Source: an uncultured Candidatus Saccharibacteria bacterium
GTDB taxonomy: Bacteria > Patescibacteriota > Dojkabacteria > SC72 > JAFGCJ01
Direction of reading: 5' to 3'
Length of the DNA stretch: 64,000 nucleotides
Assembly (NCBI GenBank): GCA_964508755.1
Contig: CAZDUZ010000001.1
Location: 15,110-79,109 of the forward strand
Below are positions 1 to 40,732 of this stretch, in pieces. Both the position numbers and the translations under genes were made by a program. A model generated the notes under the pieces. That model did no database searches. It worked only from the letters and a program-made list of their open reading frames with translations, and had not been told where the DNA came from. How positions within the stretch are numbered: position 1 is the first letter of the stretch; each line of letters opens with the position of its first letter.

Positions 1-74
1 CCAAATACCATATCAAACAGTGCATCCGATAGCACATCGAAAGGTTTATCCAACAGTGCATCTGCGTCTTTCAT
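1..74 (-). CDS. 5' end of a minus-strand ORF running off the window start (ATG at 74; MKDADALLDKPFDV...)
   Basis: Open frame with no stop from 74 to the window edge on the minus strand. No homology is recognisable from 24 aa. Confidence 0.2.
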   Translation of the reverse strand, partial: MKDADALLDKPFDVLSDALFDMVF

Positions 75-120
75 TTCCCGTTTTTTCAATAGACCTTCTG
101 TTAAGTCGGGAAGATTTGTT

Positions 121-2967
121 GTGAAGCTGTGTTTGCTTTTTTTTCTATTAACCGTTTCTTCCGTTGTATTGTATGTTGCCTTTGGTATTTCCTGGTCAGA
201 TCCATATGCTGTAACGGTGTCAAACGTCACGGACCGTTCTGCGACTATTAGCTGGGTTACAAGGGAACCGGTGCGAGGGGTAGTTGCTTATTCAGAATCG
301 CCGAATTTCCTACCTGGTATTTTGACTCGTTTTGGCAAGAATGTGGCTTTTGATGATCGGGATATAATTCATGCGCAAGAACAGACGGTTGCAAAGATAG
401 CTGAGAATGCACAAAACGCAGGATCTGATATCGTTTCCTACGAGGAGATCGCTGAAGATATTACGCTTTCTGAGCTTAGTTCTTTCTATGTCCATCATGT
501 AACCATTAAGAATTTGGATCCTGATAGTACGTATTTTTTTCGAGTTGGAAATGGCAATCGTTTTACTTTCGCGAAGGATGGTTCGTCAGATTTTTCTACA
601 AAAGCTGAATTGGATAACCTATTGGTTCCTAATCCGGCATACGGTTTGGTAAAATTTTGGGGTGATGAGGATAATCCTGTAGATGACGGTATTGCTTACT
701 TACAGCTTTCTGATGGTGTTGAAACATCGGATCTTGCTTCTGCTGTACTAGGTGAGAATGGGTCTTGGTATATCGATGTGAATAGTATTCGTTCTATCAA
801 TGGCGATCTTTTTCTATACGATCGAGAGGGTCGGGATATTAGGGAAATTCTTACAATAGAAGCGAGTATTCAAGGTAGATACGAAGTAGAAATCGATCCA
901 GATAATGATGCACCTGCTCCTGTCGTCATTATTCAAGATCCTGAAATGGAAGAAAATCAGCCTAACGTAAAGCAGCTGTCTCCATCAGTTTCTTTTGTGA
1001 ATAAGAGTTTCTCTTTTCTTCAAGAAGCATTGGCTTTTGACTGTAGTGAAAACCGTGGGTTTCCCTGTTCAAAATGTAAGGGTTGCCATGAAGGATGCAA
1101 TTATGATGCTTCTGGCAATGTAACTGGGTGTGGATATATGGATTACTGCTCTTCAGGTTGTGAGAGATTGCAAGATCCTCCTGGATGTGAATGTGGCTGT
1201 CCATCCGGAACAAAAAGCTGTACCGGAACCGGAATTAAGTGTGAGAATCAAAAGTGTGTTTCTAGCACACCGCCTCCTGCCCAAGAGCCCTCAAACCCAA
1301 ATCAAGGGAGTTGTATCGGAAGCACTAATGCTCCGCCAGTTGCGAATGGTTTTTGCGGACCTGACAGGTCTGGTTGTTATCGTGATGATGGTTCTGGCGA
1401 TTCCTCCTGTGCGTGGCGAGCGTGTAATAATGGAAGCTGGGTGAAGTCTAATGATTGTTGTGGAAAGTGTTCAGCCTCAACTTCAGAAAGAGGGTCTGAT
1501 AATCCATCTGAGGAAAAAACCTGTGAAAGCGAGGGATTATTTACATTCGATGTATCCTCACAATTTTGTGGAAGTCCTCATTTAATTATTCCTATTGGAA
1601 ATGAAGTATGTTGCTCAACAAAACCGGTAGAAAGATCCAATAATTCTGACGGTGAGTCTGAAGAAGAGTCTGAAGAAGAGTCAGGAGAACCGACGTCCTT
1701 CCTTTCCGTGTGTTCTGCAAACCGAAATGAATACAATGATGCAAATTGCAATAATGCCTGTTCTCCTTCACAATGTTTCAAAAAAACGGAAACAAACTAT
1801 ACTTCTGATGGTGGATCAGTGACACGTCATTGTTATATTTGCTTAGAAAACTATTATAATAAATCAAATTGCGACAATGCGTGTGGTGATAATGCTACAT
1901 GCATCTTTGTTGGTGAAGGTATGTACCGATGTCAAGAAGGTTTGTATGATACAAGAGATTGTAATGGTAAATGCCCTGGATTTTGTAAAGAATATAGTGA
2001 AGGTTTTTACTATTGTGAAACGAGCCAAATGGCTTCTGCTGATATTGAAGCAATTCCTGGAGTCCCCGTATCTAATACAGAAAGAGTCTCCTCTTTATAC
2101 AATCAAAGTAATACTAGCAGTCGCAAATTAATTAACACCATCATTCCACCCGTCATAGCTCAAGAGCCTACAAGTTCTTCTCTCATACTTTCACCCACTG
2201 AAGGTTTGTATCTCTTTGATAACAGTGGAGTGTATTGTTCAACAATTCAGACTGTTCAATATTGTTTCGATGTCAGTACGCCTGGTAAAAAAATTCTATA
2301 TATCGACTCGAATTTGAATAGTGCGTTCGATGGAGAAGATTATGATTTAGGTGAATTTTACGGTGAAATCGAGGTTGAATTGTCTGAGAGTACAAATATT
2401 TACAAAGTGAAAAATGGTTACTCCATTCTTGCCTTCAATCTTGCTTCTACAGATCCTGAGCAGATGATGGCTTCTTCTGTACTAAAAAAACTGAATGTAG
2501 ATCATAACGATGCGTTCTTTTCTATTGCGATGTTTGAGGATGGTAGATGGATTGTTGTAGGTAACAGAGATGGTGAACAGTATGGTGGTAATGATTTCAT
2601 GATAATTCCTGGAAAAGGATATCTGGTAAAAGCTAAACAATCGCTAGAGTTTGTGATTTCTGGACGAAAGGTTGTTAGCCCTGTTCCGGTAAGCTTGGTT
2701 ACCGGCTGGAATCTCGTCGCCGTGCATGGGACAGAGAAGGGGTATACCGCATCAAGTCTTATCGATTCAATAGATAGCGTAGAGGGTCTTGACGCAAACA
2801 ATGTAACGATGTGGGATCTATCAACTTCTCGATATAAAGGATTGCAGAAGGAGAAAGATGCGGGTGGAAATATGGAGGTGTATGGATTTGATTTTCCGCT
2901 TGATCCGCTATCTGGATATTTTGTACGAATTGCAAGCGGAAGTGGAGTGTGGGAGCCAGAAGAATGA
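121..2967 (+). CDS. Large membrane-anchored extracellular protein (948 aa). N-terminal TM helix, purple-acid-phosphatase-N / FN3-like domain, long Cys-rich low-complexity middle, conserved ~300-aa C-terminal domain.
   Basis: GTG start then a hydrophobic helix (LLFFLLTVSSVVLYVAFGI). Motifs VSNVTDRSATISWVT ... FYVHHVTIKNLDPDSTYFFRVGNG match the PAP N-terminal/FN3 fold. About 60 Cys occur in CxxC/CxC patterns between aa 300 and 620. The C-terminus is homologous to the next gene. Confidence 0.75.
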   Translation: MKLCLLFFLLTVSSVVLYVAFGISWSDPYAVTVSNVTDRSATISWVTREPVRGVVAYSESPNFLPGILTRFGKNVAFDDRDIIHAQEQTVAKIAENAQNAGSDIVSYEEIAEDITLSELSSFYVHHVTIKNLDPDSTYFFRVGNGNRFTFAKDGSSDFSTKAELDNLLVPNPAYGLVKFWGDEDNPVDDGIAYLQLSDGVETSDLASAVLGENGSWYIDVNSIRSINGDLFLYDREGRDIREILTIEASIQGRYEVEIDPDNDAPAPVVIIQDPEMEENQPNVKQLSPSVSFVNKSFSFLQEALAFDCSENRGFPCSKCKGCHEGCNYDASGNVTGCGYMDYCSSGCERLQDPPGCECGCPSGTKSCTGTGIKCENQKCVSSTPPPAQEPSNPNQGSCIGSTNAPPVANGFCGPDRSGCYRDDGSGDSSCAWRACNNGSWVKSNDCCGKCSASTSERGSDNPSEEKTCESEGLFTFDVSSQFCGSPHLIIPIGNEVCCSTKPVERSNNSDGESEEESEEESGEPTSFLSVCSANRNEYNDANCNNACSPSQCFKKTETNYTSDGGSVTRHCYICLENYYNKSNCDNACGDNATCIFVGEGMYRCQEGLYDTRDCNGKCPGFCKEYSEGFYYCETSQMASADIEAIPGVPVSNTERVSSLYNQSNTSSRKLINTIIPPVIAQEPTSSSLILSPTEGLYLFDNSGVYCSTIQTVQYCFDVSTPGKKILYIDSNLNSAFDGEDYDLGEFYGEIEVELSESTNIYKVKNGYSILAFNLASTDPEQMMASSVLKKLNVDHNDAFFSIAMFEDGRWIVVGNRDGEQYGGNDFMIIPGKGYLVKAKQSLEFVISGRKVVSPVPVSLVTGWNLVAVHGTEKGYTASSLIDSIDSVEGLDANNVTMWDLSTSRYKGLQKEKDAGGNMEVYGFDFPLDPLSGYFVRIASGSGVWEPEE
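2717..2947. repeat. 231-bp segment with 2 mismatches to 6197-6427 (3' ends of the two paralogous surface-protein genes)
   Basis: Direct comparison of the sequence: 2728-2943 equals 6208-6423 exactly (216 bp), flanked by single mismatches. Confidence 0.9.
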
Positions 2968-3081
2968 GAACTACAGCTTTATTTTTCTGAAAAAATACTT
3001 ATGGATGTAAAGAATGGTTATTTTCAGGATATTGAGTGGTAATTCTAACTGTTAATCTTAAATTAATCGGTAATTTTTGCT

Positions 3082-6000
3082 GTGAATAGTCTTGGGCAGG
3101 ATGTTCCAACTTCCTTTGTTGAAGGTTCTATAAAGACAAATGATCGCCTGAAGGCATCGTTTTCACGGTCCAATAATCCTTCTCTAAGCGTCAAGCAAAA
3201 AATTAAGAAGATCATCGAATCGAGGAGGGTAGGTAAAGCACTCCTTGGTTTTTCTTTATTTATTTTCGTCCTTACGCTCGTCTATTCTTATTGGGTTTAC
3301 CAGTCATATCCTTGGTCTGAACCGTATGATATCCGGGTTACAAATGTAACCGGTCGTTCTGCGACGATAAGTTGGGTAACGGATGAAGCTGTCTCGGGTG
3401 TTGTGTCATATAGCACCTCTGATTCCTTTCTTCCGGGGGTGCTTTCACGTTTGACAGGCAGTGTTGCTTTTGATGATAGAGACATTCAGAAAGAGTTGGA
3501 AAAGAAAGCTAAAGAGGCTGTAAACACGGTTATTTCTGGAAGTGATTCTGCAACTTATGAGTATGATGTGACTTCCCAAATGACTCTTAAAGATACCGGG
3601 GCCTTTTATGTTCATCATGTGACAATCAGCAATTTAGAACCTGATACGTCGTATTATTTCCAGGTGGGTAATGGGCTACGTTTTATCAGTCCTTCTGAAG
3701 ATATTGTGGACTACACTGTGGGAAAGGGTAATTCCTTCAATACCTTTGAAGATTTGGATTCTATTCAGACACCAAGCCCGAGTTACGGTGCTGTATTGCA
3801 GGAAACTGGGGAGGTCGTTGTTGATGGATTGGTATTTATGGAAATCGAAGGCAAAAATTCATCTCCCGTATCCACAACTCTTAGTGAAAACGGTACGTGG
3901 TACATAGATTTATCAAACATCAGAAATAGTACTGGAGATGCATTTGTACGTACGGTCGAAGATAATGATTTCGAGAAGGTTTGGATTGAAGCTGGTCCTT
4001 CAGGGCGTGTTTCAACAAGTATCCCAATGACTCTTGACGCACCTGCAGAGGATATCTTTATTCCGTCTGGGGGGAGTCGCAGTGAAGAAGTATATGAATC
4101 TTCATTCGTAAGTTTTATTCGAAAGCTTACCCCACCTGTTCAAGCTGCATCTTGCTTGTGTGAATGTGAAGGTAATCAGAGTGACGGCTACAAAAGTCGT
4201 TGGTGTGGGAGGACACAGGAGCGCATTGCGAAGCAACAATTTGACGATGGATGCTACTGGATAGATGAAGGTTGTAATGCCGTTGCAACCGATCCAGCAA
4301 CTTGTAACAAGTATCAAACCTTTCCTGTCAAAGGAGACAGAATTGGAAACACCTGTGAAGGTGGTCAGGATTCTACTTCCACAGCTCCTCCAACTGGAAC
4401 AACCCCAACTGATACACCAAATGATACTCCTAGTTCTCCTCTGCCACAAGAATCTGCAGACGCCACGAGAGGTTCATGTGGTGGTAGGGCTCATGGATCG
4501 TGTGGTCCAAGTTCACTTGCGTGTTTATCCAAAGCACCTCCTGAGGATTGTTTTTGGGCAATTTGTGACGATGGAGCGTGGAAAAGAATTGAACCAAATA
4601 CTTGCCCTGAGAGTAACGTTGCATCAGATACAGAAGGGAGTGGGGATAGTACAACACCCTCAGGTTCTCAGGCACCTGGTCTTGCTTGTAGAGAGAGGAA
4701 CAGTAGTTGGGTACTTTGCACGAGTCTTCGAGAAGATGAAAGGAGAATTGTATATCGTGATAGTTTAGGGGCTGGTTCTAATGATTGCTGTGTGAAAATT
4801 AATCAACCTGTTGATACGAGCGGAACAACAGATGTCTGTTTTGACCGCTATTATCTTTCCATCTCTTGTGAAAGTGATGAAGCAGACAAAGATAATGTTA
4901 TTGGACTATCAGATCCAAACAACCCCTCTTCATATAAGTGCTGCGGTTTCAAAGCATCGACTCCAGATGATTTAGAAGAATTAAGAAGATCGGAAGCTGA
5001 GAGAGATGAAAGTTTTGCCCAATCGAGGGATGAGCTCTGTCGAAAAGAATTTGATGAAAACACAGTGTCTGAATATAACTCTAGTGCTGATCGAGGAGCG
5101 TCTCGGGGTAATATTTTTCCAGCTGATGGTGGTATTGTAACCTGTTTTTTCAAGATTGGTGTTGTCTCACGCCCTCCTGACATGCAAACCTGTGGGGAGC
5201 AGGGAGAAGGGTATGTATCTTTTTCGGAAGGAAACCAAACCTGCAGTGAGGTAGTTGACGGTATTCGTGATTTCAAAGGTCAATCTTGTTGTAAAAGTTG
5301 CGATAAAGTGAATCCAACACCTCCCGGGTGTACCAGTGTAACCTTAGCTCAAGCTCAAGTTCCTGAAGTAAACCTCATACAACTTTTACAAAATAGTATT
5401 TCTTGTTTTTTCAATTTTCACAAAGTCGCTTACTGTGGAGGAAATCCTTGTAATAACCAGTGTGGATGTACCTGTAAACGATCAGGTGCTGGAGAATGTG
5501 AAACTGACGGTGTAGTTGTAGGACCAGGAGAATTATGTCCAGGAATAAAGCAAAGCAAAATTCCTGAAACGTATACAAAGGAATTTTCATCTTTGTCTCA
5601 ATCTCTTTCCAGTAAAGTTCAGGCTGAATTTGAAGAAAACACAAATGATAAAGAAAACATACTTCTTATCTCTCCTGAAAACGGCATCTTTTCATTTAAT
5701 GAAAAAGGAATATATTGCACGATCATAAATGAAGTTCCCTACTGCTTTGAAATTAATGAAACTGGACCGAAGAGGCTCTATATTGATCGGAATGGTGATA
5801 ATACATTTGACAATGCTGATATTGATCTTGGTTCTCAGGTATTTGAATTAGAGGTTACTCAAGAAGATGAAGTCGATATCTATAACATTGAGCTTGGTTT
5901 TAACTTCATGTCTTTTAGAATTGTGGGAGGAACCGGAGAGGATACTCTTGCATCTACGTTTCTAGAAAACCTGAACAGCCAATATGACAATGCATTCTTC

Positions 6001-6444
6001 TCAATTGCAAAATTTGAGGCAGGACGATGGGTTACGGTTGAATCACGCGGAGGTTCTCAATACGGAAATAATGATTTTCCTATACTACCTGGTCAAGGCT
6101 ATATCCTGAAAGCTACGAAATCATTCGAGATGGCTGTAACCGGAAAAAGAATAATTAGTTCGGTACCTGTATCTTTGGCACCCGGTTGGAACCTCATCGC
6201 CGTGCAGGGGACAGAGAAGGGGTATACCGCATCAAGTCTTATCGATTCAATAGATAGCGTAGAGGGTCTTGACGCAAACAATGTAACGATGTGGGATCTA
6301 TCAACTTCTCGATATAAAGGATTGCAGAAGGAGAAAGATGCGGGTGGAAATATGGAGGTGTATGGATTTGATTTTCCGCTTGATCCGCTATCTGGATATT
6401 TTGTACGAATTGCAAGCGGAAGCGGAACATGGACTCCGGAGTAA
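3082..6444 (+). CDS. Paralog of the preceding gene (1120 aa). TM anchor, PAP-N/FN3-like domain, Cys-rich region, shared C-terminal domain.
   Basis: IRVTNVTGRSATISWVT ... FYVHHVTISNLEPDTSYYFQVGNG parallels gene 121-2967. The C-terminal ~300 aa align throughout and the last 77 codons are nucleotide-identical. The true start is uncertain: GTG 3082 has no obvious SD, and an AGGAGG at 3219 is not followed by a start codon. Confidence 0.75.
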   Translation: MNSLGQDVPTSFVEGSIKTNDRLKASFSRSNNPSLSVKQKIKKIIESRRVGKALLGFSLFIFVLTLVYSYWVYQSYPWSEPYDIRVTNVTGRSATISWVTDEAVSGVVSYSTSDSFLPGVLSRLTGSVAFDDRDIQKELEKKAKEAVNTVISGSDSATYEYDVTSQMTLKDTGAFYVHHVTISNLEPDTSYYFQVGNGLRFISPSEDIVDYTVGKGNSFNTFEDLDSIQTPSPSYGAVLQETGEVVVDGLVFMEIEGKNSSPVSTTLSENGTWYIDLSNIRNSTGDAFVRTVEDNDFEKVWIEAGPSGRVSTSIPMTLDAPAEDIFIPSGGSRSEEVYESSFVSFIRKLTPPVQAASCLCECEGNQSDGYKSRWCGRTQERIAKQQFDDGCYWIDEGCNAVATDPATCNKYQTFPVKGDRIGNTCEGGQDSTSTAPPTGTTPTDTPNDTPSSPLPQESADATRGSCGGRAHGSCGPSSLACLSKAPPEDCFWAICDDGAWKRIEPNTCPESNVASDTEGSGDSTTPSGSQAPGLACRERNSSWVLCTSLREDERRIVYRDSLGAGSNDCCVKINQPVDTSGTTDVCFDRYYLSISCESDEADKDNVIGLSDPNNPSSYKCCGFKASTPDDLEELRRSEAERDESFAQSRDELCRKEFDENTVSEYNSSADRGASRGNIFPADGGIVTCFFKIGVVSRPPDMQTCGEQGEGYVSFSEGNQTCSEVVDGIRDFKGQSCCKSCDKVNPTPPGCTSVTLAQAQVPEVNLIQLLQNSISCFFNFHKVAYCGGNPCNNQCGCTCKRSGAGECETDGVVVGPGELCPGIKQSKIPETYTKEFSSLSQSLSSKVQAEFEENTNDKENILLISPENGIFSFNEKGIYCTIINEVPYCFEINETGPKRLYIDRNGDNTFDNADIDLGSQVFELEVTQEDEVDIYNIELGFNFMSFRIVGGTGEDTLASTFLENLNSQYDNAFFSIAKFEAGRWVTVESRGGSQYGNNDFPILPGQGYILKATKSFEMAVTGKRIISSVPVSLAPGWNLIAVQGTEKGYTASSLIDSIDSVEGLDANNVTMWDLSTSRYKGLQKEKDAGGNMEVYGFDFPLDPLSGYFVRIASGSGTWTPE
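6197..6427. repeat. Second copy of the 231-bp near-identical segment (see 2717-2947)
   Basis: Same comparison; the offset is exactly 3480 bp. Confidence 0.9.
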
Positions 6445-8151: not shown

Positions 8152-8691
8152 CTATGTCATCACATCCATCTCCCCATGTCGTTCCTTCGACGACATGATT
8201 TTGCAGGTAAGAATCGCCTTCAAGTGTTGTACAATTATCCGTCTCTGTTTCTTGAGGCCAACCTGCTTCATCGTAACCAACTCCTGGACCGACCCAGAAA
8301 CACTAACAAATCCCCCTGTCTCTTCTTGACTGACACCAATTACATACCGTATACCATCAGACTTAAAGGCAACACATGTTTTCGGTGGTGAAGACCAACT
8401 TGATTCGAGATAAGGCTTGAGATACTCTGAATCGCCGCTTCCTTCGAGAAGTTCTTGCATTGATGCCGCAGTTGACTCTCCTAATGTAGTTGGGAACATC
8501 TTATGCTCTGAGTAGAAAGCTGTCATTGCACGTTCCATATTTACCGCAGCAGCTTGCCTTGCAGTGTTTCTTGATTTTCGTGTGGCATATCCAATTCCTG
8601 CGATAGAAACGGCGACAAGAACTGCAAGAATTGCCATTACCACCAGTAATTCAACCAGGGTAAATCCCTTACTGTTTCGTAACAACGACAT
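8152..8691 (-). CDS. Type IV pilin / pseudopilin-like protein with prepilin N-terminal methylation motif
   Basis: N-terminus MSLLRNSKGFTLVELLVVMAILAVLVAV is the class III signal (G|FTLVE) plus hydrophobic helix that defines type IV pilins. Confidence 0.75.
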   Translation of the reverse strand: MSLLRNSKGFTLVELLVVMAILAVLVAVSIAGIGYATRKSRNTARQAAAVNMERAMTAFYSEHKMFPTTLGESTAASMQELLEGSGDSEYLKPYLESSWSSPPKTCVAFKSDGIRYVIGVSQEETGGFVSVSGSVQELVTMKQVGLKKQRRIIVQHLKAILTCKIMSSKERHGEMDVMT

Positions 8692-15002: not shown

Positions 15003-15686
15003 ATGAATGTGATGCAACATATTGGTAAAAATAAGAAGGTTATGATCCTGATTACGATTGGACTTTGCATGATTCTCGTAAGCGGAGTAGGAATGTATGT
15101 ATTGCGAGACAGTAAAGACAATACTGAATTGACGAATTCTTGGATTAATAGCGAAATCAATATGGTGGAAATCGAGGATGTATCTGGAGATTCGACTTCC
15201 GAAGTGACCAATACCTGTACTGGTCATTGGATTGATGTTTCTGGAAGTGTCGTAAATTCAGGTATTTATTGTCTCGAATCGACAAAAACAATTGCAGATG
15301 CGCTTGATAAAGCGGGAGGTCTTCGCGAAGAAGCTTGCCTTCAGTGGATCGAAAGAAGTCTTAACCGTGCAGAATTGATAACACCTTCAAAGAAACTATA
15401 CATACCCTCAAAAAGTGATAGTGAATGTCTGGAACTGAATATTATATCTACTAATGAAAGTTTGACTTCGCCTGCATCTACTTCCAATAAAGGTATCTGC
15501 TCAAATGGTTTAATAAATATTAACAGTGCTGATGCAACGCTGCTGGATACTTTACCGAATGTCGGACCCTCCCTCGCAGGAAAAATCATCGATGCACGAC
15601 CATATAAGTCACTCAATGATTTAAAAAACATTGGGGGTATTGGAGAAGCAACGTATGGAAAAATTGCTCCTTTGATTTGCCTGTAG
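15003..15686 (+). CDS. comEA: ComEA-like DNA receptor (TM anchor, SLBB-like region, C-terminal tandem helix-hairpin-helix)
   Basis: C-terminus ININSADATLLDTLPNVGPSLAGKIIDARPYKSLNDLKNIGGIGEATYGKI is the ComEA HhH DNA-binding signature. Confidence 0.8.
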   Translation: MNVMQHIGKNKKVMILITIGLCMILVSGVGMYVLRDSKDNTELTNSWINSEINMVEIEDVSGDSTSEVTNTCTGHWIDVSGSVVNSGIYCLESTKTIADALDKAGGLREEACLQWIERSLNRAELITPSKKLYIPSKSDSECLELNIISTNESLTSPASTSNKGICSNGLININSADATLLDTLPNVGPSLAGKIIDARPYKSLNDLKNIGGIGEATYGKIAPLICL

Positions 15687-17227
15687 AGGTGTCTGATGTA
15701 TCAAGTCTTAAATTTATAGATATTCCCCCAATTGTGTTATTTTCGCTTGCTGTTGGTGTTGCCTCGGCATTTGCACGGCCTTATTTTGTGGCTATTCTTC
15801 TCGTTGTTGTCACTCTTTTGTGCATAGTTCTCAAAATGAAGCTGTGGGGGGCTGTGGGAGGGGTTGCGTGCATCTTACTTCGTATGTTGCTCGTAAGTTC
15901 ATATGATATTTCTGATGAACATATATCTCACCACAATGGGAAGTACGGATGCTTTCTGGGATATGTAGGTAGGGAAATAGTGGCAAAAGAATCGTCGGTA
16001 AGAGCTATGGTCGAAGTCAACTACCTCTGTACTCCTGGAAGCAATAAAGTTGACGGGGAAGATTGTGTATCCGCGGCAGGAAAGGTTCTCGTCTGGTTTC
16101 CAAGATATGCCACTATTCGCTATGGAGAATTATGGCATTTTTGCGGTGTTCTGGAGGAGCCTCCGCCAGAAGTAAACGGATTTCCATATGCACAGTATCT
16201 AGAAGAAAAAAACGTGTTTTCGTTGATGTATCGATGTACCGCGGAAAATTATTCAAACCGAAGAGGGAATGCTGTAGATCTTCTTTTCTGGGATATCGGC
16301 GATTTTCTTGGAAACCGTATTGAGCAGAGGCTTCCTGAACCTCACGCATCCCTCATGTCTGGCATGCTTTTTGGTTTTAGATCGGATCAATTTCCTGATT
16401 TTTCGCAGAACCTACAGCGGACAGGAGTCACTCATGTCATCGCAGCTTCTGGTTTTAATGTTTCAATTGTTATGACTTTTATTAATGCACTAACGTCATT
16501 TCTTCCAAGGAAGTCGCGGGTGGCGGTATCCATCGTGAGTGCATGGGCATTCTCTTTGATTGCGGGAGGTAGTATTCCGGTTATTCGTGCTGCATTAATG
16601 TCAACGTACTCTTCGGTTGGTTCGTTAGTTGGATTTACTCCGTCAGCTCGTGTCTCTCTTATGTTTACCGGAGCATTACTCCTATTGGTGAGCCCGGATT
16701 ATATGAGCGATATCAGTTTCCAGCTTTCTTATGCTTCAACTGCAGGGCTTTTATACATACTTCCCGTACTTGAGAGTTTACTGAATAAGTGGTGGAGAAA
16801 TGTTTTTGAAAACGGTTTAGTAACAATTGCAGCAATGATAGCAACAACACCAATAAGTCTGTATCACTTCGGTACATTTTCACTTGTGTCTCTACCAGCG
16901 AATATGCTGATACTTCCTCTTGTTACGCCTTCAATGATCGCGGGAGCAGTCATTTGTGTGATTCCAGGCGGTATGAAAGGCGTTCTTGGTCTAATTTCTT
17001 TGGTGTCCTGGGTGCCTCTCGATATATTTGAGAAGGTTGTAAATTGGCTTTCTGGAGTCGATAACGCGATGGTTGAGGTAGGAAGTCCATCATTTATTAT
17101 GGTCTTGTTGTTCTACTGTGGCGTGGGGTTGTTTCTATTGTGGGTGGATAAGTGGAAGAAGTCTACTTCCTCAATATTTCCAGGAGGTAATTATGCTGAG
17201 TTGCTCGTTGGAAGGGCTTGTTTGTGA
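15677..17227 (+). CDS. comEC: ComEC/Rec2 competence channel, membrane (N-terminal and competence-domain) part
   Basis: Polytopic membrane protein with ComEC-like topology. Followed in another frame by the MBL domain that normally forms the ComEC C-terminus. Confidence 0.65.
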   Translation: MPVEVSDVSSLKFIDIPPIVLFSLAVGVASAFARPYFVAILLVVVTLLCIVLKMKLWGAVGGVACILLRMLLVSSYDISDEHISHHNGKYGCFLGYVGREIVAKESSVRAMVEVNYLCTPGSNKVDGEDCVSAAGKVLVWFPRYATIRYGELWHFCGVLEEPPPEVNGFPYAQYLEEKNVFSLMYRCTAENYSNRRGNAVDLLFWDIGDFLGNRIEQRLPEPHASLMSGMLFGFRSDQFPDFSQNLQRTGVTHVIAASGFNVSIVMTFINALTSFLPRKSRVAVSIVSAWAFSLIAGGSIPVIRAALMSTYSSVGSLVGFTPSARVSLMFTGALLLLVSPDYMSDISFQLSYASTAGLLYILPVLESLLNKWWRNVFENGLVTIAAMIATTPISLYHFGTFSLVSLPANMLILPLVTPSMIAGAVICVIPGGMKGVLGLISLVSWVPLDIFEKVVNWLSGVDNAMVEVGSPSFIMVLLFYCGVGLFLLWVDKWKKSTSSIFPGGNYAELLVGRACL

Positions 17228-18129
17228 GAATCAATTGGTTGAAATCTGTGTTATATGGTTCGGGGCTTCTGATTTGGGTTCTTATTTATCAGACGCCTTT
17301 GATTGTTTCGGGCGCAAAGGTTTCATTCCTTGATGTAGGGCAGGGAGATTCTATACTTATTCGAAGTGGTAAAGGTCAAACGGTTCTTATTGATGGAGGA
17401 CCAGATGTATCGGTAATAACAGAACTTGGAACCGTTCTCCCTGTATGGGAAAGAGAGATCGATATTGTTGTGTTAACTCACGCGCATGATGATCACTTGT
17501 TGGGACTATTCGACGTGCTGAAGCGTTTTTCAGTAAAAGTTGTTATTGTAAGAGAAAAGACGTGCGATAGCAAAGTATGTCATGAATTGCTAATGTTGTG
17601 TAAAGAGCTTGAAATCAAAATCTTAGATCTTGATTCCCTTGAACCTCCGTATCAGATAGTGTTGGATGATCTGTCTCTTTCCTTTTGGTGGTCTAAGAAT
17701 GAAACACTACTCGATAATATAAATAACAGTTCAGTCGTGACTGTTCTTTTTCATGAATCGGGGCGATTTTCTGCGATACTGACAGGAGACTTAGAAGAAG
17801 GCGCTGAATATGAATTAATTAACGCATCTTCATTTTGGTATCAAATTGTTGCTACACATGTCACTCGAAGTTCTTCAAGCTTATTTACTGTGCTGAAAGC
17901 AGGTCATCATTGTTCACGTACCGCTAGTTCTGATGATTTTCTTCGTACGACAAAGCCTCTGTATGTTTTATGCAGTTTGGGAAAGGATAACCGTTTTGGT
18001 CATCCTCACGAAGAGACAATTGAAAGACTTCGAAATACCGAAAGTACTGTATTACGGACTGATCTTGATGGACGGGTAACTTTTTATATAGAAAACGGTA
18101 GGGTTGAAAGGGAGAGATTGGGCAGGTAG
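17218..18129 (+). CDS. comEC: ComEC C-terminal metallo-beta-lactamase domain, encoded as a separate or frameshifted ORF
   Basis: VSFLDVGQGDSILI ... VVLTHAHDDHLLGL is the HxHxDH MBL motif. It overlaps the previous ORF by 10 nt in a different frame. Its only start is TTG 17218 with no correctly spaced SD. Confidence 0.6.
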   Translation: MFVRINWLKSVLYGSGLLIWVLIYQTPLIVSGAKVSFLDVGQGDSILIRSGKGQTVLIDGGPDVSVITELGTVLPVWEREIDIVVLTHAHDDHLLGLFDVLKRFSVKVVIVREKTCDSKVCHELLMLCKELEIKILDLDSLEPPYQIVLDDLSLSFWWSKNETLLDNINNSSVVTVLFHESGRFSAILTGDLEEGAEYELINASSFWYQIVATHVTRSSSSLFTVLKAGHHCSRTASSDDFLRTTKPLYVLCSLGKDNRFGHPHEETIERLRNTESTVLRTDLDGRVTFYIENGRVERERLGR

Positions 18130-18288
18130 GGGGTGAAACTGCAATATCGATAGAATTTCTTTGTACTATTATTACGTTACATTCCCTTCCTATGGTAAAA
18201 TAGCGCGTCGTACGAAAATATGCACTGGCTGTACTGTGAAAGGGTAGTTTGCTTGAGTTTTGGCTTACCTATTGCAAGCTCTTCGTAT

Positions 18289-18361
18289 GCACCTGTAGCT
18301 CAGTGGATAGAGCAACTGCCTTCTAAGCAGTAGGTCGTCGGTTCGAATCCGACCGGGTGCG
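18289..18361 (+). tRNA. tRNA-Arg (anticodon TCT)
   Basis: Cloverleaf: acceptor GCACCTG/CGGGTGC, anticodon stem ACTGC/GCAGT, loop CTTCTAA, T-loop TTCGAAT. Confidence 0.8.
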
Positions 18362-18424
18362 TATGTAAAAAAGGCCTGCTGAATACGGAGTATGTATTGT
18401 TCGTGAGATGCTCAAGTTGCATGT

Positions 18425-18497
18425 GCATCCATAGCTCAACGGATAGAGCACTGGTTTGCGGAACCAGAGGTTAGAGGTTCGAATCCTCTTGGATGCG
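18425..18497 (+). tRNA. tRNA-Arg (anticodon GCG)
   Basis: Close overall resemblance to E. coli tRNA-Arg(ACG), but the anticodon loop is TTGCGGA (stem CTGGT/ACCAG). The ACG isoacceptor is replaced by GCG. Confidence 0.7.
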
Positions 18498-18547
18498 TTT
18501 TTTGATAAACAGTTTCTATCAGAATATTAACGGAGAATGTTGTATTA

Positions 18548-18621
<74 letters not shown>

Positions 18622-19005: not shown

Positions 19006-21612
19006 ATGAAATTCAAGATTAGTCCTGAGTTATTAAGTAAGTATCCGACTGTCTGTGAGTACATAGTTGTTGCACGTGAAGTGAACAACGAGATTGCCGG
19101 TAAGTCTATTGTGGATAGAATGTCTGTTGTGACGCATGAGATAAAGGAAAAAGGTAAGGAGTTGTTGAATAATGAACGGTATTCGCGATGGGAGCGTGTC
19201 TATGAAGAGATGGCTCGTACTGCTTCTTTGAAACCCTCTGATTTCCACGCGTCTCATGTAGCTTTGACAAAACGTGCTTTTTCTGGAAAAGGGCTACCTA
19301 ATATTAATCCTCTTGTCAATTTTTATAACATGTACTCTCTTAAATATGGAGTTCCCTTTGGTGGGGAGGATCTTTCCACTGTATACGGAGATCTTATTCT
19401 TACTGTATCTAAGGGTGGTGACCTTTATAAGGGTATTGGAGAAAGCATTGTCGAAAAGACAAACGCAGGAGAGGTGACTTGGAAAGATGATTACTCAGTA
19501 ACCTGTAGACTGTGGAATTGGAGGCAAAGTGACCGGACGAAAATTACACGAAACAGCAAGGATATTTATTTCATTATTGATGGATTTACAGACCTTCCTG
19601 ATGTCGAGTATGAGAAATTAGTCACTGATTTTTGCCATGAAGTCCAAACGGTATTTGGTGCAAAAGTTGAGTACGGGAAGATCTCCGCGGAATCACCTGA
19701 GTTTGAAGTGAATTATGTTACAAAAAGTGTTTCTGGTATCGATGCAGAGACAGAAATGTCTTCCAAAAGTGCGTCAGGAAAAGCTAAGAATAAAAACACT
19801 GATAAAACAAAGAAAATTCTACAAAGAAAGGCTGCAATGCTGGGATTAAAAGATGGGAGTCATCTTTCAGAGAGAGTCACAGCCATTGTAGATGAAATTA
19901 TTGGGGAACATAATGGTGGTGGATCATCCACCCTGTCATTGTCGCAAAACTCTCCGTTTGGTGATTTTTCAACGACTCTCGCACTGAAGCGTGCATCTGT
20001 ATTGAAAAAATCTCCACAAGAAATTGCTCAGGAAATGGTACAAAAACTGGTATCAGATCCAAAAGGACAGTCGCTTTTTTCGAGTGTAAGTGCGGCACCG
20101 AATGGATTCATTAATCTTACCTTGTTAGATTCAGTACTTGTTGATGAGTTGGTTTCTGCATACAGAAAAAAAGATAGCTTTGGCAACTCTGAAGTAGGGG
20201 AAAACCGGACAATTCTAATTGAAAGTCCTTCCATTAATCCAAATGCCGCCGCGCATATCGGCCATCTTTTAAATCTTTTTATCGGTAGGGCGTTGGGAAG
20301 GTTATTTACGAAGGTTGGATTTGATGTCAAGGTCGATAACCTCATTAATGATCGTGGGATTAAGATTTGTATGGCAATGTGGGGGGTAGCTAATCTCTCA
20401 GAGTCTAGTAATCCTACTGAGGCTGGTTTAAAGCCAGATCAATTTGTCGGGTTATCGTATGTGAAGGCAAAACAGCTTTATAATGAGGATTCTTCAGTGA
20501 AAGAAGAGATTCAGCAGATGCTTCGGGATTGGGAGGAAGGCAAACCTGAGGTGATGGAACTTTGGAAAAAGGTCGTCGGATGGGCCTATGAAGGACATAG
20601 ACTGACATTTGAAAGACTGGATGAGGTAGAGGGTCATCTTTGGCTTGAGAGCGAAATATACAAAGGCGGGAAAGATGTGATTCAGTCATATCTCGGTAAA
20701 GGAGTAATAGAAAAACTACCCGATGGCGCGGTTATTGGACGTTTAGAAGAAAAATATGGAATCCCTGATGTAATTCTTCTGAGGGCCGATGGGACAAGTT
20801 TGTATGAAACGCAGGATATCTACTTGACGATGTTGAAGGTGAAGAAATTCAATCCCTGGAAGGCTATATGGGTTGTCGGTAATGAGCAGATTGCACATTT
20901 TCAGAAGCTTTTCGCACTATTTGAAGCACTCGAAATACTGAACGTGGATAATTTGTATCATATGGGATACGGAATTGTTGTTGATAAAAAGGGAATCAAG
21001 ATAGGGAAAAATGCAGCCGATGCCACCGCAGATACCGTTCTCGATCAGATGCGAGACATGGCGTTGTCGATTATGAAAGAGCGAAAAATTAAAAGAACGT
21101 TGGAAGATGAAGGGGATATTGCTGAAGCTGTGGGACAGGGAGCCCTCAGGTATGCGTTTCTTTCAAAAGATCCCTTTCTTGGCACGGTGTACGATCCTGA
21201 GTCTGCTCTTTCATTTACTGGTAGAAGCGGGCCATATATTATGTATGCCTATACAAGAGCAAAAAACGTGCTAGGAAAGGTATATAAAGATACTGCTCAC
21301 GATGAGGGTAAAGAGGTAGACTCTCTCTTGAGTGAAGATATTTCTTTATCACCTGAAGAGAAATCGCTTGCTCTTTCTATACTGCAGTACCCGGAGATCA
21401 TTCTTTCTGCTGCTAATGCGTATGCTCCAAATGTTGTTGCAGAGTACTTGTACAAACTTGCAAGACAATTCAGCAATTTCTACGAAAAGATGCCTATTGC
21501 TTCGGCAGAAGGAAACGAACGCCATCTGAGAATTCTTCTTACATCTCTTACGAGTACGATTCTCAAGGATGGTTTATCAATCCTAGGAATAAGAACACTT
21601 GAGAATATGTAA
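19006..21612 (+). CDS. argS: Arginyl-tRNA synthetase with an N-terminal B3/4 (PheT-like) domain fusion (868 aa)
   Basis: aa ~1-230 (ISPELLSKYPTVCEYIVVAREVNNE ... ) resemble the B3/4 domain of COG3382/PheT beta. aa ~300-868 contain the ArgRS N-domain, the class I HIGH motif (NAAAHIGHLLN) and a DALR-like anticodon-binding region (GALRYAFLS), ending ...LENM. Confidence 0.8.
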   Translation: MKFKISPELLSKYPTVCEYIVVAREVNNEIAGKSIVDRMSVVTHEIKEKGKELLNNERYSRWERVYEEMARTASLKPSDFHASHVALTKRAFSGKGLPNINPLVNFYNMYSLKYGVPFGGEDLSTVYGDLILTVSKGGDLYKGIGESIVEKTNAGEVTWKDDYSVTCRLWNWRQSDRTKITRNSKDIYFIIDGFTDLPDVEYEKLVTDFCHEVQTVFGAKVEYGKISAESPEFEVNYVTKSVSGIDAETEMSSKSASGKAKNKNTDKTKKILQRKAAMLGLKDGSHLSERVTAIVDEIIGEHNGGGSSTLSLSQNSPFGDFSTTLALKRASVLKKSPQEIAQEMVQKLVSDPKGQSLFSSVSAAPNGFINLTLLDSVLVDELVSAYRKKDSFGNSEVGENRTILIESPSINPNAAAHIGHLLNLFIGRALGRLFTKVGFDVKVDNLINDRGIKICMAMWGVANLSESSNPTEAGLKPDQFVGLSYVKAKQLYNEDSSVKEEIQQMLRDWEEGKPEVMELWKKVVGWAYEGHRLTFERLDEVEGHLWLESEIYKGGKDVIQSYLGKGVIEKLPDGAVIGRLEEKYGIPDVILLRADGTSLYETQDIYLTMLKVKKFNPWKAIWVVGNEQIAHFQKLFALFEALEILNVDNLYHMGYGIVVDKKGIKIGKNAADATADTVLDQMRDMALSIMKERKIKRTLEDEGDIAEAVGQGALRYAFLSKDPFLGTVYDPESALSFTGRSGPYIMYAYTRAKNVLGKVYKDTAHDEGKEVDSLLSEDISLSPEEKSLALSILQYPEIILSAANAYAPNVVAEYLYKLARQFSNFYEKMPIASAEGNERHLRILLTSLTSTILKDGLSILGIRTLENM

Positions 21613-25751: not shown

Positions 25752-26090
25752 GTGAATATTGTAACTGGTATTGATATAGTGGATATTGCTGAGTTTCAAG
25801 CTCAACTCGATCGAGGTGGAGAACGCATGGTAAAGAGATGTTTTTTCGATTCAGAACGTGATAATGCTTCTATTGAGCGCCTTGCCGGGACATTTGCAGC
25901 GAAGGAAGCTGTCATCAAAGCATTATCCTTAGGCCATTCTTCGTGGAAAAAGGTTATGGTTAAACATGCGCCTGACGGAAGACCAATTATTCAGTTGTTA
26001 GATGTGCAATGCTTGATAATATCATCGGATGTATCTATCACTCATACTGATTCCGTTGCCGCAGCTCAATTTGTTGCAATTCTTTCATGA
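25752..26090 (+). CDS. acpS: Holo-[acyl-carrier-protein] synthase (4'-phosphopantetheinyl transferase, AcpS type)
   Basis: GIDIVDIAEF ... LAGTFAAKEAVIKAL conserved AcpS blocks. 112 aa. The stop overlaps the next gene's start (ATGA). Confidence 0.75.
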   Translation: MNIVTGIDIVDIAEFQAQLDRGGERMVKRCFFDSERDNASIERLAGTFAAKEAVIKALSLGHSSWKKVMVKHAPDGRPIIQLLDVQCLIISSDVSITHTDSVAAAQFVAILS

Positions 26091-28612
26091 AACGAATGAG
26101 TCCTTTCAACAATCTTTCAGAGTACATTTCTTCATGTGCTTCTTCATTCCCTGACAATACTGTCATGCAGATTCGTCGTGGTTTCACGACAGAAAAGTAC
26201 TCTTATAAAGAGCTTGACCGTTTGATGAGGCAATGTGCTTCATATTTATATAAGACTGGTCTGAGGAAAGGTGACTGTGTATTGATATGGGGTCCAAATA
26301 TGCCAGAGTGGGTAGTGGCGTTATTGGGAGTTCTATCAATTGGTGCCGTTTCGGTGCCTGTCAGTATGCATGCCACCCCTGAAACGGTTGATGAATATCT
26401 CCGACAAACCAATGCGAAATTTCTTCTTCGCTCACGATTTGTAAATGATCGTAAGCGACGTGGCGTCACCGCAATTGATCTCGAAGACGTTATAACATCC
26501 TCACGAAAGTATGAGGAGATGAAGCTGCCGAAGATTAAACCTGATGATGTAGCTGAAATAATGTATACCTCCGGGACCACGGGAGATCCTTCCGGGGTAG
26601 TGCTGAGCCACGGAAATATTCTTGAAGGACTTGAAGGTCTTCGTCTTTTGGTACCTCCTTCCTCTGAATTTCGTTTGCTTTCAATACTTCCGTTAAGTCA
26701 CGCTCTGGAACAGCTTCTTGGATTTTTCACTCTCATACGCTTTGGGGCAACGGTTTACTATGTACCCCGAATAAATCCTGTTGTGATTGTGCGCTCTCTT
26801 AACCGCTACAAAATAACTCATCTCATCGTTGTGCCTGAATTGATCAAGGTGATGTGGAATTCCATTGAACTTCAGGCTCAGCAAAAAGGAGCTCTCTTAA
26901 AGCTGCAAAAAGCATTGAAAATAGCTCCGCATCTCCCAATGTCTCTTCGTCGAGTATTGTTTAAGGATGTTCATAAAGCTTTTGGTGGAAAGCTAAAGCT
27001 TCTTGCCTGTGCAGGAGCTCCACTCGATGTATGGGTAGGGGAGAATTGGGAAAAAATAGGTGTCGTAGTGCTTGAAGGATATGGCTTAACAGAGACAAGT
27101 GCTGCTTTGACGGCGAATCAAATACATGCAAGAAAAATAGGATCCGTAGGAAAGCTTTTACCTGGAGTTGAAGTAAGATTTTCAAAGGATGGTGAGGTCC
27201 TCACTCGGGGTTTGAATGTCACGAAGGGATACTACAAAAATGCAAAGAAGACTAAAGAATCATTTACCTCAGAGGGTTTCTTTAAAACGGGAGATGTCGG
27301 ATATGTAGGTAAGGATGGATTCGTGTATTTAACCGGTAGAAAAAAATTCAAGATTGTTATACCGACAGGAGAAAAAGTATATCCTGAAGATGTTGAGCGT
27401 TCTTTAAATGATCACCCTGCAGTAAAAGAAAGTTGTGTTATAGGTATTAAAAAGGATCGTGGTGAGATTGTGCATGCGGTGCTCATCCTGAAGCGAGATA
27501 TTGATCCTGCAACAGTTATTGCTCAGGTAAATTCTCAGCTTGAGTCTCATCAAACAATTCTTGAGTGGAGCTTGTGGAAAGACGATGATTTTCCCCGTAC
27601 TCGGTCACTAAAAAAAGATAGAAACAGAGTAAAAGAGTATGTGATGGGTACTATTACTTCATCAAGCAGCGACCTACCGCAAGATAGTAAAGCCACTACC
27701 TCCCAACGTGATCCACTAAAGGATATTATCTCTGCTGTTTTTAGTGTTGACGCTCATTCTATAACTGAAAATACCTCTTTAGTGTTTGATCTTCATATGG
27801 ATTCATTACGCCGGATTGCCTTAGTTTCCCTTATTGAAGATGAATTTGGAGTGGTTGTGTCTGAACAAGATCTTGTAGAATCTACAAAAGTGGAAAATGT
27901 CCGAATCCTCATTAAGGAAGGGAAGAAATCGGTTGAAAGTAAAGCGATTCCTTCTTGGCCAACTGCTCCTTTCACCGTAATTATAAGAGATTTGATTCGG
28001 ACATTTCTCTTTTTTCCGATTTCAAGACTCACCCTTGCCCGTATAGAAATTGTGAACAAAGAAGTGGTAAAAAATATGAAAGGACCATCAATTATTGCTT
28101 TTAATCATGTCGGACATTTAGAGCCACTAATGATTATGGTCTCGCTTCGCCGTGCGATTCAGAAAAAACTGTTTACGCTTGCAGATGCAGATGGATTCTA
28201 TCTCTGGATTCGTCGTTTCTTTTTATACTTCTTTGCAGGTGCATTTCCAGTAGAGAAGCATGGTGGGCCTGTTCGTCAGACGCTTGAATTGGCTGCTGAC
28301 CTTTTGGAAGACGGGTGGAGCTTACTTATGTCACCCGAAGGAAATAGAAGTTCTGATGGAAATCTTTTAGAATTCAAACAGGGGACGGGTATGATTGCTG
28401 TTGAAACACGTGTACCTGTTTATCCTGTGAAAGTGAAAGGTTACCGCGAGGCACACGTAAGTCTAAAGAAGGGTATTTTTGACGTTTTTTTTGATTTCGC
28501 AAAGCCAGGTAAAAAAGTTACGCTTGTTTTCGGCGAGCCGATCGTTTTCGACCCCAATACTTCGCACGAACAGGCGACTGAGAAGATTCGTTCCGTGATT
28601 GAGAACTTGTAG
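26087..28612 (+). CDS. Tri-domain acyl-ACP synthetase (AMP-binding) / acyl carrier protein domain / PlsC-type lysophospholipid acyltransferase (Aas-like)
   Basis: AMP-binding motifs (MYTSGTTGDPSGV, GYGLTET, TGD...GRKK), a phosphopantetheine-attachment site LHMDSLRRIALVSL, then the acyltransferase motifs NHVGHLEP and MSPEGNRS. Confidence 0.75.
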   Translation: MKRMSPFNNLSEYISSCASSFPDNTVMQIRRGFTTEKYSYKELDRLMRQCASYLYKTGLRKGDCVLIWGPNMPEWVVALLGVLSIGAVSVPVSMHATPETVDEYLRQTNAKFLLRSRFVNDRKRRGVTAIDLEDVITSSRKYEEMKLPKIKPDDVAEIMYTSGTTGDPSGVVLSHGNILEGLEGLRLLVPPSSEFRLLSILPLSHALEQLLGFFTLIRFGATVYYVPRINPVVIVRSLNRYKITHLIVVPELIKVMWNSIELQAQQKGALLKLQKALKIAPHLPMSLRRVLFKDVHKAFGGKLKLLACAGAPLDVWVGENWEKIGVVVLEGYGLTETSAALTANQIHARKIGSVGKLLPGVEVRFSKDGEVLTRGLNVTKGYYKNAKKTKESFTSEGFFKTGDVGYVGKDGFVYLTGRKKFKIVIPTGEKVYPEDVERSLNDHPAVKESCVIGIKKDRGEIVHAVLILKRDIDPATVIAQVNSQLESHQTILEWSLWKDDDFPRTRSLKKDRNRVKEYVMGTITSSSSDLPQDSKATTSQRDPLKDIISAVFSVDAHSITENTSLVFDLHMDSLRRIALVSLIEDEFGVVVSEQDLVESTKVENVRILIKEGKKSVESKAIPSWPTAPFTVIIRDLIRTFLFFPISRLTLARIEIVNKEVVKNMKGPSIIAFNHVGHLEPLMIMVSLRRAIQKKLFTLADADGFYLWIRRFFLYFFAGAFPVEKHGGPVRQTLELAADLLEDGWSLLMSPEGNRSSDGNLLEFKQGTGMIAVETRVPVYPVKVKGYREAHVSLKKGIFDVFFDFAKPGKKVTLVFGEPIVFDPNTSHEQATEKIRSVIENL

Positions 28613-34838: not shown

Positions 34839-34876
34839 GCGCTTTGAGTAATAACTAATGGTTAACGCATTAATAA

Positions 34877-37512: not shown

Positions 37513-37515
37513 TTT

Positions 37516-38559: not shown

Positions 38560-38586
38560 CTTTGCCGTTTATACAAAAAATTTACA

Positions 38587-40104: not shown

Positions 40105-40732
40105 ATCTTAAAAATTCTGTCCATCTAAGGCCTGAATACTGACCTACAAGGACATTAACAAGGATCAAGAACGGAATGATCCAAAGGTTATTGATAAAGA
40201 AGTTGTGGGTTACTTCCCATCGCATGAGGCTCCAGCCGAGACAGGAAATTAATATTGTCTCTCCGGTAAGTCGAGCAGCTGTCATAAGATCTTTTTTGAT
40301 ATATGTCGCGACAAATCGATCAGCGACAGAAATGATCATTGCAAGGGGTAGAAAAGATATGGCAGTAAAATCCAGATACTTATTATCGACAGGAAGAAAA
40401 GATGTACCAATGATAAAGGCAAAGACTGCAATCGATATTGCGGTGTATACAATTGAAAGCCTTGAAAGATAGTGCAGTTGAAATTTACGCAGAATGTTTC
40501 TGATAATCCAGGATACGATTACTACCAGTAATGCTATAGAAATTCCCTGAATAAAACCCATGTAGTAAAAGGCAAAAGCGAGTATCATCGACGCGTAAAG
40601 TCCGAAAGTCTTGATTCCAGTAACATACCTGGAAAAGGCAGTAAGTGTGACCAATAGAGGGATAAAGGTAAGGACGAGGAGAATGTCTTCGGTGACACCT
40701 CTCTCCATGAGCCAAGATGTTAGATCAGGCAT
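40052..40732 (-). CDS. 7-TM membrane protein (7TM module of the type found with RimK-like ligase systems; no transglutaminase domain)
   Basis: Seven hydrophobic helices across 226 aa. First gene of the minus-strand ATP-grasp operon; overlaps the next gene by ~50 nt. Confidence 0.5.
   Translation of the reverse strand: MPDLTSWLMERGVTEDILLVLTFIPLLVTLTAFSRYVTGIKTFGLYASMILAFAFYYMGFIQGISIALLVVIVSWIIRNILRKFQLHYLSRLSIVYTAISIAVFAFIIGTSFLPVDNKYLDFTAISFLPLAMIISVADRFVATYIKKDLMTAARLTGETILISCLGWSLMRWEVTHNFFINNLWIIPFLILVNVLVGQYSGLRWTEFLRFAQVIRHGESPDNTPKK

Follow-up and report, generated by a model that had tools for sequence, protein, structure and literature searches.

The 64,000-nucleotide stretch of DNA analysed here (the window; contig CAZDUZ010000001.1, positions 15,110 to 79,109, from an uncultured Candidatus Saccharibacteria bacterium) begins with two adjacent open reading frames (ORFs) on the forward strand, given in its ORF list as 121..2967 and 3082..6444. 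The pair covers 6.3 kb, or ∼10% of the window, as a first-pass annotation had stated; the description of its products as giant proteins of 948 and 1120 amino acids (aa) needs adjustment. The length of 948 aa for protein 1 is a lower bound only: frame 1 of gene 1 is open from base 1, with neither a stop nor an earlier start codon, and the window translation corresponds to residues 22–1009 of P0015 (1009 aa), the full gene 1 product, which places the start of gene 1 63 nucleotides (nt) upstream of the window. For proteins of ∼1000–1100 aa the word giant is an overstatement. The proposed architecture, comprising a transmembrane (TM) anchor, a purple acid phosphatase-N/FN3 domain, a cysteine-rich region and a conserved C-terminal domain, nevertheless holds for both proteins. 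Their common layout is a cytoplasmic tail, a TM helix, an FN3 domain and a second β-sandwich (together, the N-module), a Cys-rich middle and a C-terminal module (C-module) (Table 1). Over the N-terminal 490 aa the two proteins are ∼35% identical, and in the middle they give no alignment.

Table 1. Coordinates of the gene pair and of the modules encoded by each gene (window positions)
Feature	Position	Strand	Details
Gene 1	1..2967	+	5′ end cut by window edge; true start lies upstream of the GTG listed at 121
Protein 1 TM helix (signal anchor)	121..198	+	Kyte–Doolittle; 62-aa tail before
Protein 1 N-module	169..957	+	FN3/PF16656 at nt 211–567, then second β-sandwich
Protein 1 Cys-rich middle	958..2151	+	40 Cys in 398 aa (10.1%)
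Protein 1 C-module	2152..2964	+	subdomain A with D-x-N-x-N loop at nt 2305–2340, then repeats B and C
Identical tract, gene 1	2728..2942	+	inside repeat C; 215 nt, 100% identical to 6208–6422
Gene 2	3082..6444	+	1120 aa; 100% identical to P0001
Protein 2 TM helix	3241..3300	+	hydropathy; 53-aa K/R-rich tail before
Protein 2 N-module	3289..4101	+	FN3/PF16656 at nt 3331–3675, then second β-sandwich
Protein 2 Cys-rich middle	4102..5628	+	38 Cys in 509 aa (7.5%)
Protein 2 subdomain A	5656..5883	+	small β domain; EF-hand-like loop DRNGDNTFDNAD at nt 5785–5820
Protein 2 repeat B	5884..6162	+	GFNFMSF ... PGQGYILK
Protein 2 repeat C	6163..6441	+	GWNLIAV ... GYFVRI
Identical tract, gene 2	6208..6422	+	inside repeat C; 215 nt, 100% identical to 2728–2942

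A Kyte–Doolittle scan revealed one hydrophobic segment per protein, located N-terminally and preceded by a K/R-rich tail of 53–62 aa, in agreement with the anticipated TM anchor. Basic residues (K+R) outnumber acidic ones (D+E) in the two tails by 11 to 4 and 7 to 4 and, by the positive-inside rule, such tails fit an N-in/C-out (type II) signal-anchor topology, which we infer for both proteins from hydropathy and charge only. The TM segment likewise precedes the FN3 module in 115 of the 124 members of the wider family that have the full architecture. A sortase substrate akin to the MSCRAMMs (microbial surface components recognizing adhesive matrix molecules) was also considered and rejected, as LPXTG is absent, the chains end in ...GSGVWEPEE and ...GSGTWTPE, and the sole hydrophobic segment is N-terminal.

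The predicted phosphatase-like β-sandwich was recovered in both proteins, which score above the gathering cut-off (30 bits) of PF16656, Pur_ac_phosph_N (46.2 bits, aa 31–149, and 42.4 bits, aa 84–198), and contain the motifs ISWVT (nt 247–261 and 3367–3381) and Y[YF]FxVGNG (nt 532–555 and 3652–3675). PF16656 alone exceeds its Pfam threshold, fn3 being sub-threshold, and an NCBIfam scan of the two proteins gave no match. The AlphaFold2 (AF2) model of the protein 2 N-module, built from a 14-sequence alignment (predicted local distance difference test score, pLDDT, 73.9; predicted template modelling score, pTM, 0.74), is tandem-FN3-like, with an FN3 sandwich, a long helix and disordered loop inserted after a DDRD motif, and the second β-sandwich. 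Foldseek matched this model to the tandem FN3 ectodomains of adhesion receptors (contactins, sDscam, LAR and Ihog; E 4e-5 to 1e-3, probability ∼1.0) and also to the N-domains of plant purple acid phosphatases and phytases. The similarity to the purple acid phosphatase N-domain comprises the PF16656 match, the fold (wheat, kidney bean) and the signature YxHHVxL..L.P.T.YYY.VG; unlike the phosphatases, however, the proteins described here lack a metallophosphoesterase domain, and their FN3 domain carries the long helical insertion after DDRD. No Metallophos or other catalytic Pfam or NCBIfam match was found in either protein even at E ≤ 1, in line with the expectation that neither would prove to be an ordinary enzyme, and since the metallophosphoesterase catalytic domain is missing, both can be taken not to be phosphatases.

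Two motifs are invariant in 14 of 14 aligned N-modules, DDRD (nt 352–363 in gene 1 and 3472–3483 in gene 2) and Y-x-H-x-V-T (nt 487–504, YVHHVT, in gene 1 and 3607–3624 in gene 2), and relatives outside the candidate phyla radiation (CPR) keep D-x-R-[GD] ... H-x-V. These residues could constitute a ligand or metal site, or could be purely structural.

Cysteine makes up 7.5–10% of the middle region, compared with a mean of 0.87% in the 42 other ORFs of the window (binomial p ∼1e-29 for protein 1 and ∼1e-23 for protein 2). The region is therefore Cys-packed as claimed, but the CxxC/CxC/CC patterning also ascribed to it is weak, such motifs being few (4/2/2 in protein 1 and 1/4/3 in protein 2). 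Nearly all Cys of both proteins sit here, the content of the whole proteins being 3.6–4.5%. Protein 1 contains three tandem mini-modules of 4–5 Cys each (nt 1726–2025), with the pattern Y-[ND]-x2-[ND]-C-[ND]-x2-C-x3-5-C-x9-17-C read directly from that protein. Beyond the TM segment protein 1 has 42 and protein 2 has 40 Cys, both even numbers, and the ectodomain count is even in 102 of the 124 full-architecture family members (82%; binomial p = 8e-14). Disulfides and metal sites had been suggested side by side; the even counts, together with the predicted outside location, favour the former, and the scarcity of CxxC speaks against the latter, so that complete disulfide pairing of the ectodomain cysteines appears much more likely than metal sites. 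Oxidative folding machinery of the DsbA/MdbA-like type with VKOR has been reported to occur commonly among CPR bacteria (bioRxiv 10.1101/335083); no such genes were seen in the window.

The middle also diverges faster than the modules that flank it. Orthologs are 32–34% identical in the middle, with many indels, compared with 46–54% in the N- and C-modules, and 28–29 of 40 Cys are kept. For protein 1 and its orthologs P0002 and P0016, identity is 34% with 67–158 gap columns in the middle and 49–54% with 2–6 gap columns in the N- and C-modules, and 28 of the 40 Cys align. Its membrane-proximal half is conserved in the orthologs, while the half adjoining the C-module is not alignable.

The conserved C-terminal domain reported earlier is borne out by 51% identity between the two proteins over their C-terminal 336 aa, within which a module of ∼270 aa, matched by no Pfam or NCBIfam model, can be delimited. 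It consists of a small all-β subdomain A followed by two ∼90-aa repeats, B and C, which in the confidently predicted AF2 model (pLDDT 83.9, pTM 0.71) are β-α-β3–4 units and which are mutually homologous (hhalign 98%, E 2e-13). Both follow the signature G-[WF]-N-[LF]-[IV] ... helix TAxxL ... P-G-x-G-Y-[FLI]-[VIL]. Subdomain A contains a loop of the pattern D-x-[DN]-x-[DN]-x3-D-x2-[DE], present as DSNLNSAFDGED and DRNGDNTFDNAD, in which the Asn is invariant or nearly so. This loop resembles those of dockerins and EF-hands (D-x-N-x-D-x3-D-x2-D) and may bind Ca2+; EF-hand_5 itself was matched in 1 of 12 C-modules, and weakly (E 0.16). Otherwise, Pfam searches of the 12 C-modules at E ≤ 5 gave noise only, and a sequence-profile search of the PDB returned best E-values of 0.29 (C-module) and 0.15 (single repeat), which were judged to be noise. 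Foldseek found nothing at E ≤ 0.001 for the C-module in either the PDB (best E 0.013, TM-score ∼0.1) or BFVD (best E 0.049), and tblastn against phage genomes gave no match. The C-module therefore differs from carbohydrate-binding modules (CBMs), dockerins, SLH and GW domains and the C-terminal domains of the type IX secretion system in that it matches none of them in sequence or fold.

Repeats outside the family were identified by a profile search of a word-indexed database, sub-profile mapping and a Pfam scan. The tandem repeat, in the form GWNL[IV]xLP ... PGxGYW[IV], is widespread as a C-terminal extracellular domain (P0206, P0202, P0199, P0196, P0177). The repeat pair ends a polysaccharide lyase (P0206), an esterase (P0202), an Ig-like protein with Big_5/Big_13 domains (P0199) and a lamin-tail-domain (LTD) protein (P0196), and in this C-terminal placement in secreted enzymes and Ig-domain proteins it resembles CBM-like modules and dockerins. 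In P0013, a subtilisin of 1886 aa, the repeats are internal (aa 1463–1621, in the C-terminal half) and are followed by a second N-module. Sources include a metagenome-assembled genome (MAG) of Actinobacteria (P0200), and a protein from a Marinimicrobia MAG (P0215) gave a much weaker, partial match (E 1.5e-4). A homolog search with the P0013 repeat fragment found nothing. The GWNL repeat is covered by no Pfam model and matched no PDB sequence, and its modelling and fold search were confined to the CPR-family version; it is a candidate new domain family that deserves definition as such.

In at least 10 proteins the N-module is followed directly by two repeats (adjacency was recorded in P0181, P0184, P0187, P0190, P0193, P0194, P0197, P0198, P0200 and P0209, and also in P0013). 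The occurrence of this arrangement in non-CPR proteins implies that the N-module and repeat pair form an older cassette, and, judging from these architectures, the halves of this cassette seem to have been separated in the CPR family by insertion of subdomain A and the Cys-rich region.

The family is large. A word-indexed search yielded 14 relatives, and an exhaustive HMMER search with the C-module profile against 1.84 billion cluster representatives (clusters at 50% identity) reached far wider, matching 3060 proteins at a threshold of E ≤ 1e-3, of which 1118 remained at E ≤ 1e-10 and 592 at E ≤ 1e-30. Among the 150 best profile matches, nearly all are 900–1400 aa long with the C-module at the extreme C-terminus, and N- and C-modules are both present in 124 of the 152 matches surveyed; in these 124 the middle spans 55–931 aa (median 502) with a median of 7.35% Cys. 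Both window proteins match the N-module and C-module profiles in that order (E ∼1e-98 to 1e-111). Named members, as expected from the earlier suggestion of relatives among Patescibacteria, are assigned to ‘Candidatus Dojkabacteria’, ‘Patescibacteria group bacterium’ and ‘Candidatus Nomurabacteria’. At one locus (L009, 10001–12996) the N-module and middle of a family protein are encoded by one ORF (P0012; 687 aa) and the C-module by another (289 aa), a split that is due to a frameshift, pseudogene formation or an error in sequencing.

Tandem pairs were found at 5 of 8 independent loci, namely the window, L001, L003/L004, L007 and L010, where the 5′ end of the contig encodes the C-terminus of an upstream family copy. 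The N-module of protein 1 is 49% identical to those of P0002 and P0016 and 42% identical to that of protein 2, which indicates that the duplication is old. Recent horizontal acquisition of the pair was rejected, given that the GC content of the genes (0.40–0.42) matches that of the remaining window. Within repeat C, however, the two genes share a tract of 215 identical nucleotides, the window's sole exact repeat of at least 40 nt, whereas the remainder of the C-module is 53% identical between them. The simplest reading of this tract suggests recent gene conversion of repeat C. Alternatively, as a single contig was seen, the identity may be an assembly artefact.

Taken together, we consider it about an even bet (probability ∼0.5) that these are signal-anchored surface proteins in which the disulfide-stabilized middle and the C-module, with its Ca2+-loop subdomain and repeats, serve to bind an external polymer or cell. 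The short cytoplasmic tail and single TM helix would hold the protein in the membrane, with the FN3 domain and second β-sandwich forming the membrane-proximal part. The fast-evolving middle of 400–510 aa, with ∼20 predicted disulfides, would provide a rigid, lineage-specific ectodomain, and the C-module would be the ligand-binding unit, its ligand most likely a cell-surface polymer or glycan. A ligand-binding function is suggested by the C-terminal placement of the repeats in secreted enzymes, which is typical of accessory binding modules. The likely role would then be to adhere to another cell or surface or to recognize it, which is plausible by analogy with published proposals and from the domain make-up. 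Several observations weigh against this interpretation. The C-module matches no known binding domain, so that ligand binding is an argument from placement only. The C-terminus is the most conserved part and yet the farthest from the TM helix in sequence, whereas in classical adhesins under diversifying selection it is usually the tip that varies. Some members have a Cys-poor middle (P0007, P0100, P0095) or almost no middle (P0067), implying that the core function of the family does not depend on the disulfide-rich part, and no consistent functional partner gene was found across the loci compared.

Other interpretations account for part of these data. If the Cys residues coordinated Fe–S clusters or Zn and formed no disulfides, the proteins would be metal-binding or redox proteins, and the high Cys density and occasional CxC, CC and CxxC spacings are compatible with this. 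We nevertheless regard it as very improbable given that CxxC motifs number only 4 and 1 in the two proteins, the region is predicted to lie outside the cytoplasm, most members have an even number of Cys, Cys positions are only partly conserved, in some members the region is missing or poor in Cys, and no Pfam metal-cluster family was matched. A structural function, in which S-layer-like or other envelope paralogs form a lattice or sheath, perhaps with other FN3-module proteins, and bind no partner, is consistent with the large size of the family and the spread of its named members over two candidate phyla of Patescibacteria, with the frequency of tandem paralogs and with the presence, near the family genes of L005 and L007, of genes for TM-anchored proteins with two N-modules; the conserved N- and C-modules could serve as lattice contacts. 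Bacterial S-layer proteins are, however, typically Cys-poor, and the indel-rich, fast-evolving middle fits recognition better than lattice packing. The lack of SLH or any other S-layer Pfam domain also points away from this function, although it would be compatible with a novel lattice protein, and overall we consider the structural alternative unlikely.

It is also conceivable, if improbable, that the proteins are accessories of type IV pili or DNA uptake, for example a surface receptor or anchor working with pili. At L003/L004 the pair lies directly upstream of a pilin–PilB–PilC–minor-pilin operon, the window encodes a pilin-like protein (8152–8691, −) as well as ComEA and ComEC (15003–17227, +), and ComEA is also found near the family gene in L010. 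Five other loci, however, have no pilin next to the family gene, the window pilin is encoded on the opposite strand and separated from the pair by a tRNA and a short-chain dehydrogenase/reductase (SDR) gene, and the ComEA/leucyl-tRNA synthetase (LeuRS)/cyclophilin neighbourhood of the window and L010 looks like inherited synteny and not an operon. Moreover, neither protein has a prepilin N-methylation motif (Pfam N_methyl and motif scan). That the proteins are themselves type IV pilins or pseudopilins was rejected, the G-F-T-L-x-E motif occurring only in the separate pilin-like ORF. The binding role outlined above remains our preferred interpretation.

Proteins of comparable description are known from other CPR bacteria. 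With 1009 and 1120 aa, elevated Cys and one N-terminal TM helix, both proteins fall into the descriptive class of large Cys-rich extracellular CPR proteins, which were proposed as attachment factors in Peribacteria (Anantharaman et al. 2016, PMC4736985). The Peribacteria proteins are likewise large, Cys-rich, predicted to be extracellular or membrane-associated, clustered as paralogs and lineage-variable, but at ∼1655 aa and ∼7.2% Cys overall (PMC4736985) they are longer and richer in Cys than the proteins described here, and they are likened to these by description, with no homology implied. They carry FG-GAP or Myxococcus-type Cys repeats, in contrast to the FN3 N-module and GWNL-repeat C-module of the present family. 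In Southlakia epibionticum, envelope proteins with FN3, VCBS and dockerin domains, among them the FN3-domain protein SEML1_0890, are essential for epibiotic growth (Wang et al. 2023, PMC10633639), and SEML1_0890 and its neighbours have been proposed to bind host glycans (PMC10633639). Again by description, SEML1_0890 and the neighbouring adhesin-like proteins resemble those of the window in being patescibacterial and envelope-associated, in containing FN3 and in adjoining a large surface-protein gene, although SEML1_0890 comes from a different class (Saccharimonadia). The Pam pili of CPR bacteria combine a Sec signal peptide with an Ig-like donor-strand pilin, and their PamR has two FN3 domains and a C-terminal TM segment (bioRxiv 10.64898/2026.03.03.709456); compared by description, the proteins here have an N-terminal TM segment after a long tail and no C-terminal one, and topology, motif and domain logic speak against a Pam pilus component.

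Across the loci, no neighbouring partner gene of the family is conserved. L005 (13881–21639) and L007 (15288–18890) come from two distant lineages that share a cluster beside the family gene; in addition to the TM protein with two N-modules, genes close by encode membrane proteins and a secreted, Cys-containing protein of ∼490 aa. The two-N-module protein (starting MYITPRQ...) is TM-anchored and Cys-free, and the low-complexity linker between its N-modules is PT-rich in L005 and S/T/G-rich in L007. The L005 cluster additionally encodes a polytopic membrane protein, as well as a protein of 1020 aa whose C-terminal part carries an M23-like peptidase motif. At the remaining loci housekeeping genes surround the family gene. 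The window is syntenic with L010 (family gene, small ORF, LeuRS, cyclophilin and ComEA), and L001 shares LeuRS only. A promoter and terminator scan gave no excess over shuffled sequences.

Elsewhere, the window (41–42% GC) encodes MreBCD/PBP2 and many tRNAs. Its gene content, its synteny with L010 and the named members of the family make a Dojkabacteria-like CPR bacterium the likely source. The pilin-like ORF, of 179 aa with KGFTLVELLVV (PF07963, E 1e-9), lies 1.7 kb downstream of gene 2. The region 15003–18129 (+) contains a ComEA-like gene (HHH_3 and SLBB), ComEC (Competence and DUF4131) and, as a separate, overlapping ORF, the metallo-β-lactamase part of ComEC, forming a DNA-uptake set with DprA (51903–53048, +). 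Three tRNA-Arg genes (18288–18621) lie just before the gene for an 868-aa arginyl-tRNA synthetase (19006–21612, +) with an N-terminal B3_4 domain, an unusual fusion, this domain being normally found in the β subunit of phenylalanyl-tRNA synthetase. At 26087–28612 (+), AMP-binding, PP-binding and acyltransferase domains are fused in one protein of 841 aa, which is similar to the Aas acyl-ACP synthetase/lysophospholipid acyltransferase and fits lipid scavenging. A protein of 562 aa (29786–31474, −), whose N-terminal part is a PEGA domain (E 6.5e-14), is a further probable envelope protein. At 33594–40732 a MATCAP-like carboxypeptidase gene (+) adjoins a minus-strand cluster with four ATP-grasp genes (two RimK-like, one GARS_A-like and one ATPgrasp_ST) and a 7TM_transglut membrane protein, which looks like a peptide-ligation or modification system. 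Ribosomal protein S2 is encoded within a 493-aa ORF (58940–60421, +) whose S2 domain starts at ∼aa 150, reflecting either a long N-terminal extension or a mis-called start.

Our results do not overturn current ideas on the surface of these bacteria. The general theme of large Cys-rich CPR surface proteins is already known and is sharpened here, while the specific family and its C-terminal repeat appear to be new, no prior description of either having been found in literature searches. A more far-reaching and rather doubtful proposal can be made from the architectures. The FN3-sandwich module and the pair of GWNL repeats, which adjoin each other directly in minimal family members and in many proteins from outside the CPR, would be an old, physically associated scaffold into which CPR bacteria inserted a hypervariable, disulfide-knotted ‘display’ domain. 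The family would then comprise CPR-wide variable receptors that set host or partner specificity, with tandem paralogs swapping segments by gene conversion in a manner reminiscent of antigenic or receptor variation systems. Host recognition and attachment by CPR/Patescibacteria are largely unknown beyond type IV pili. With at least 592 clusters, usual occurrence as a tandem pair, predicted surface anchoring, and conserved modules combined with a fast-evolving disulfide-rich region, the family provides a candidate set for host-specificity determinants.

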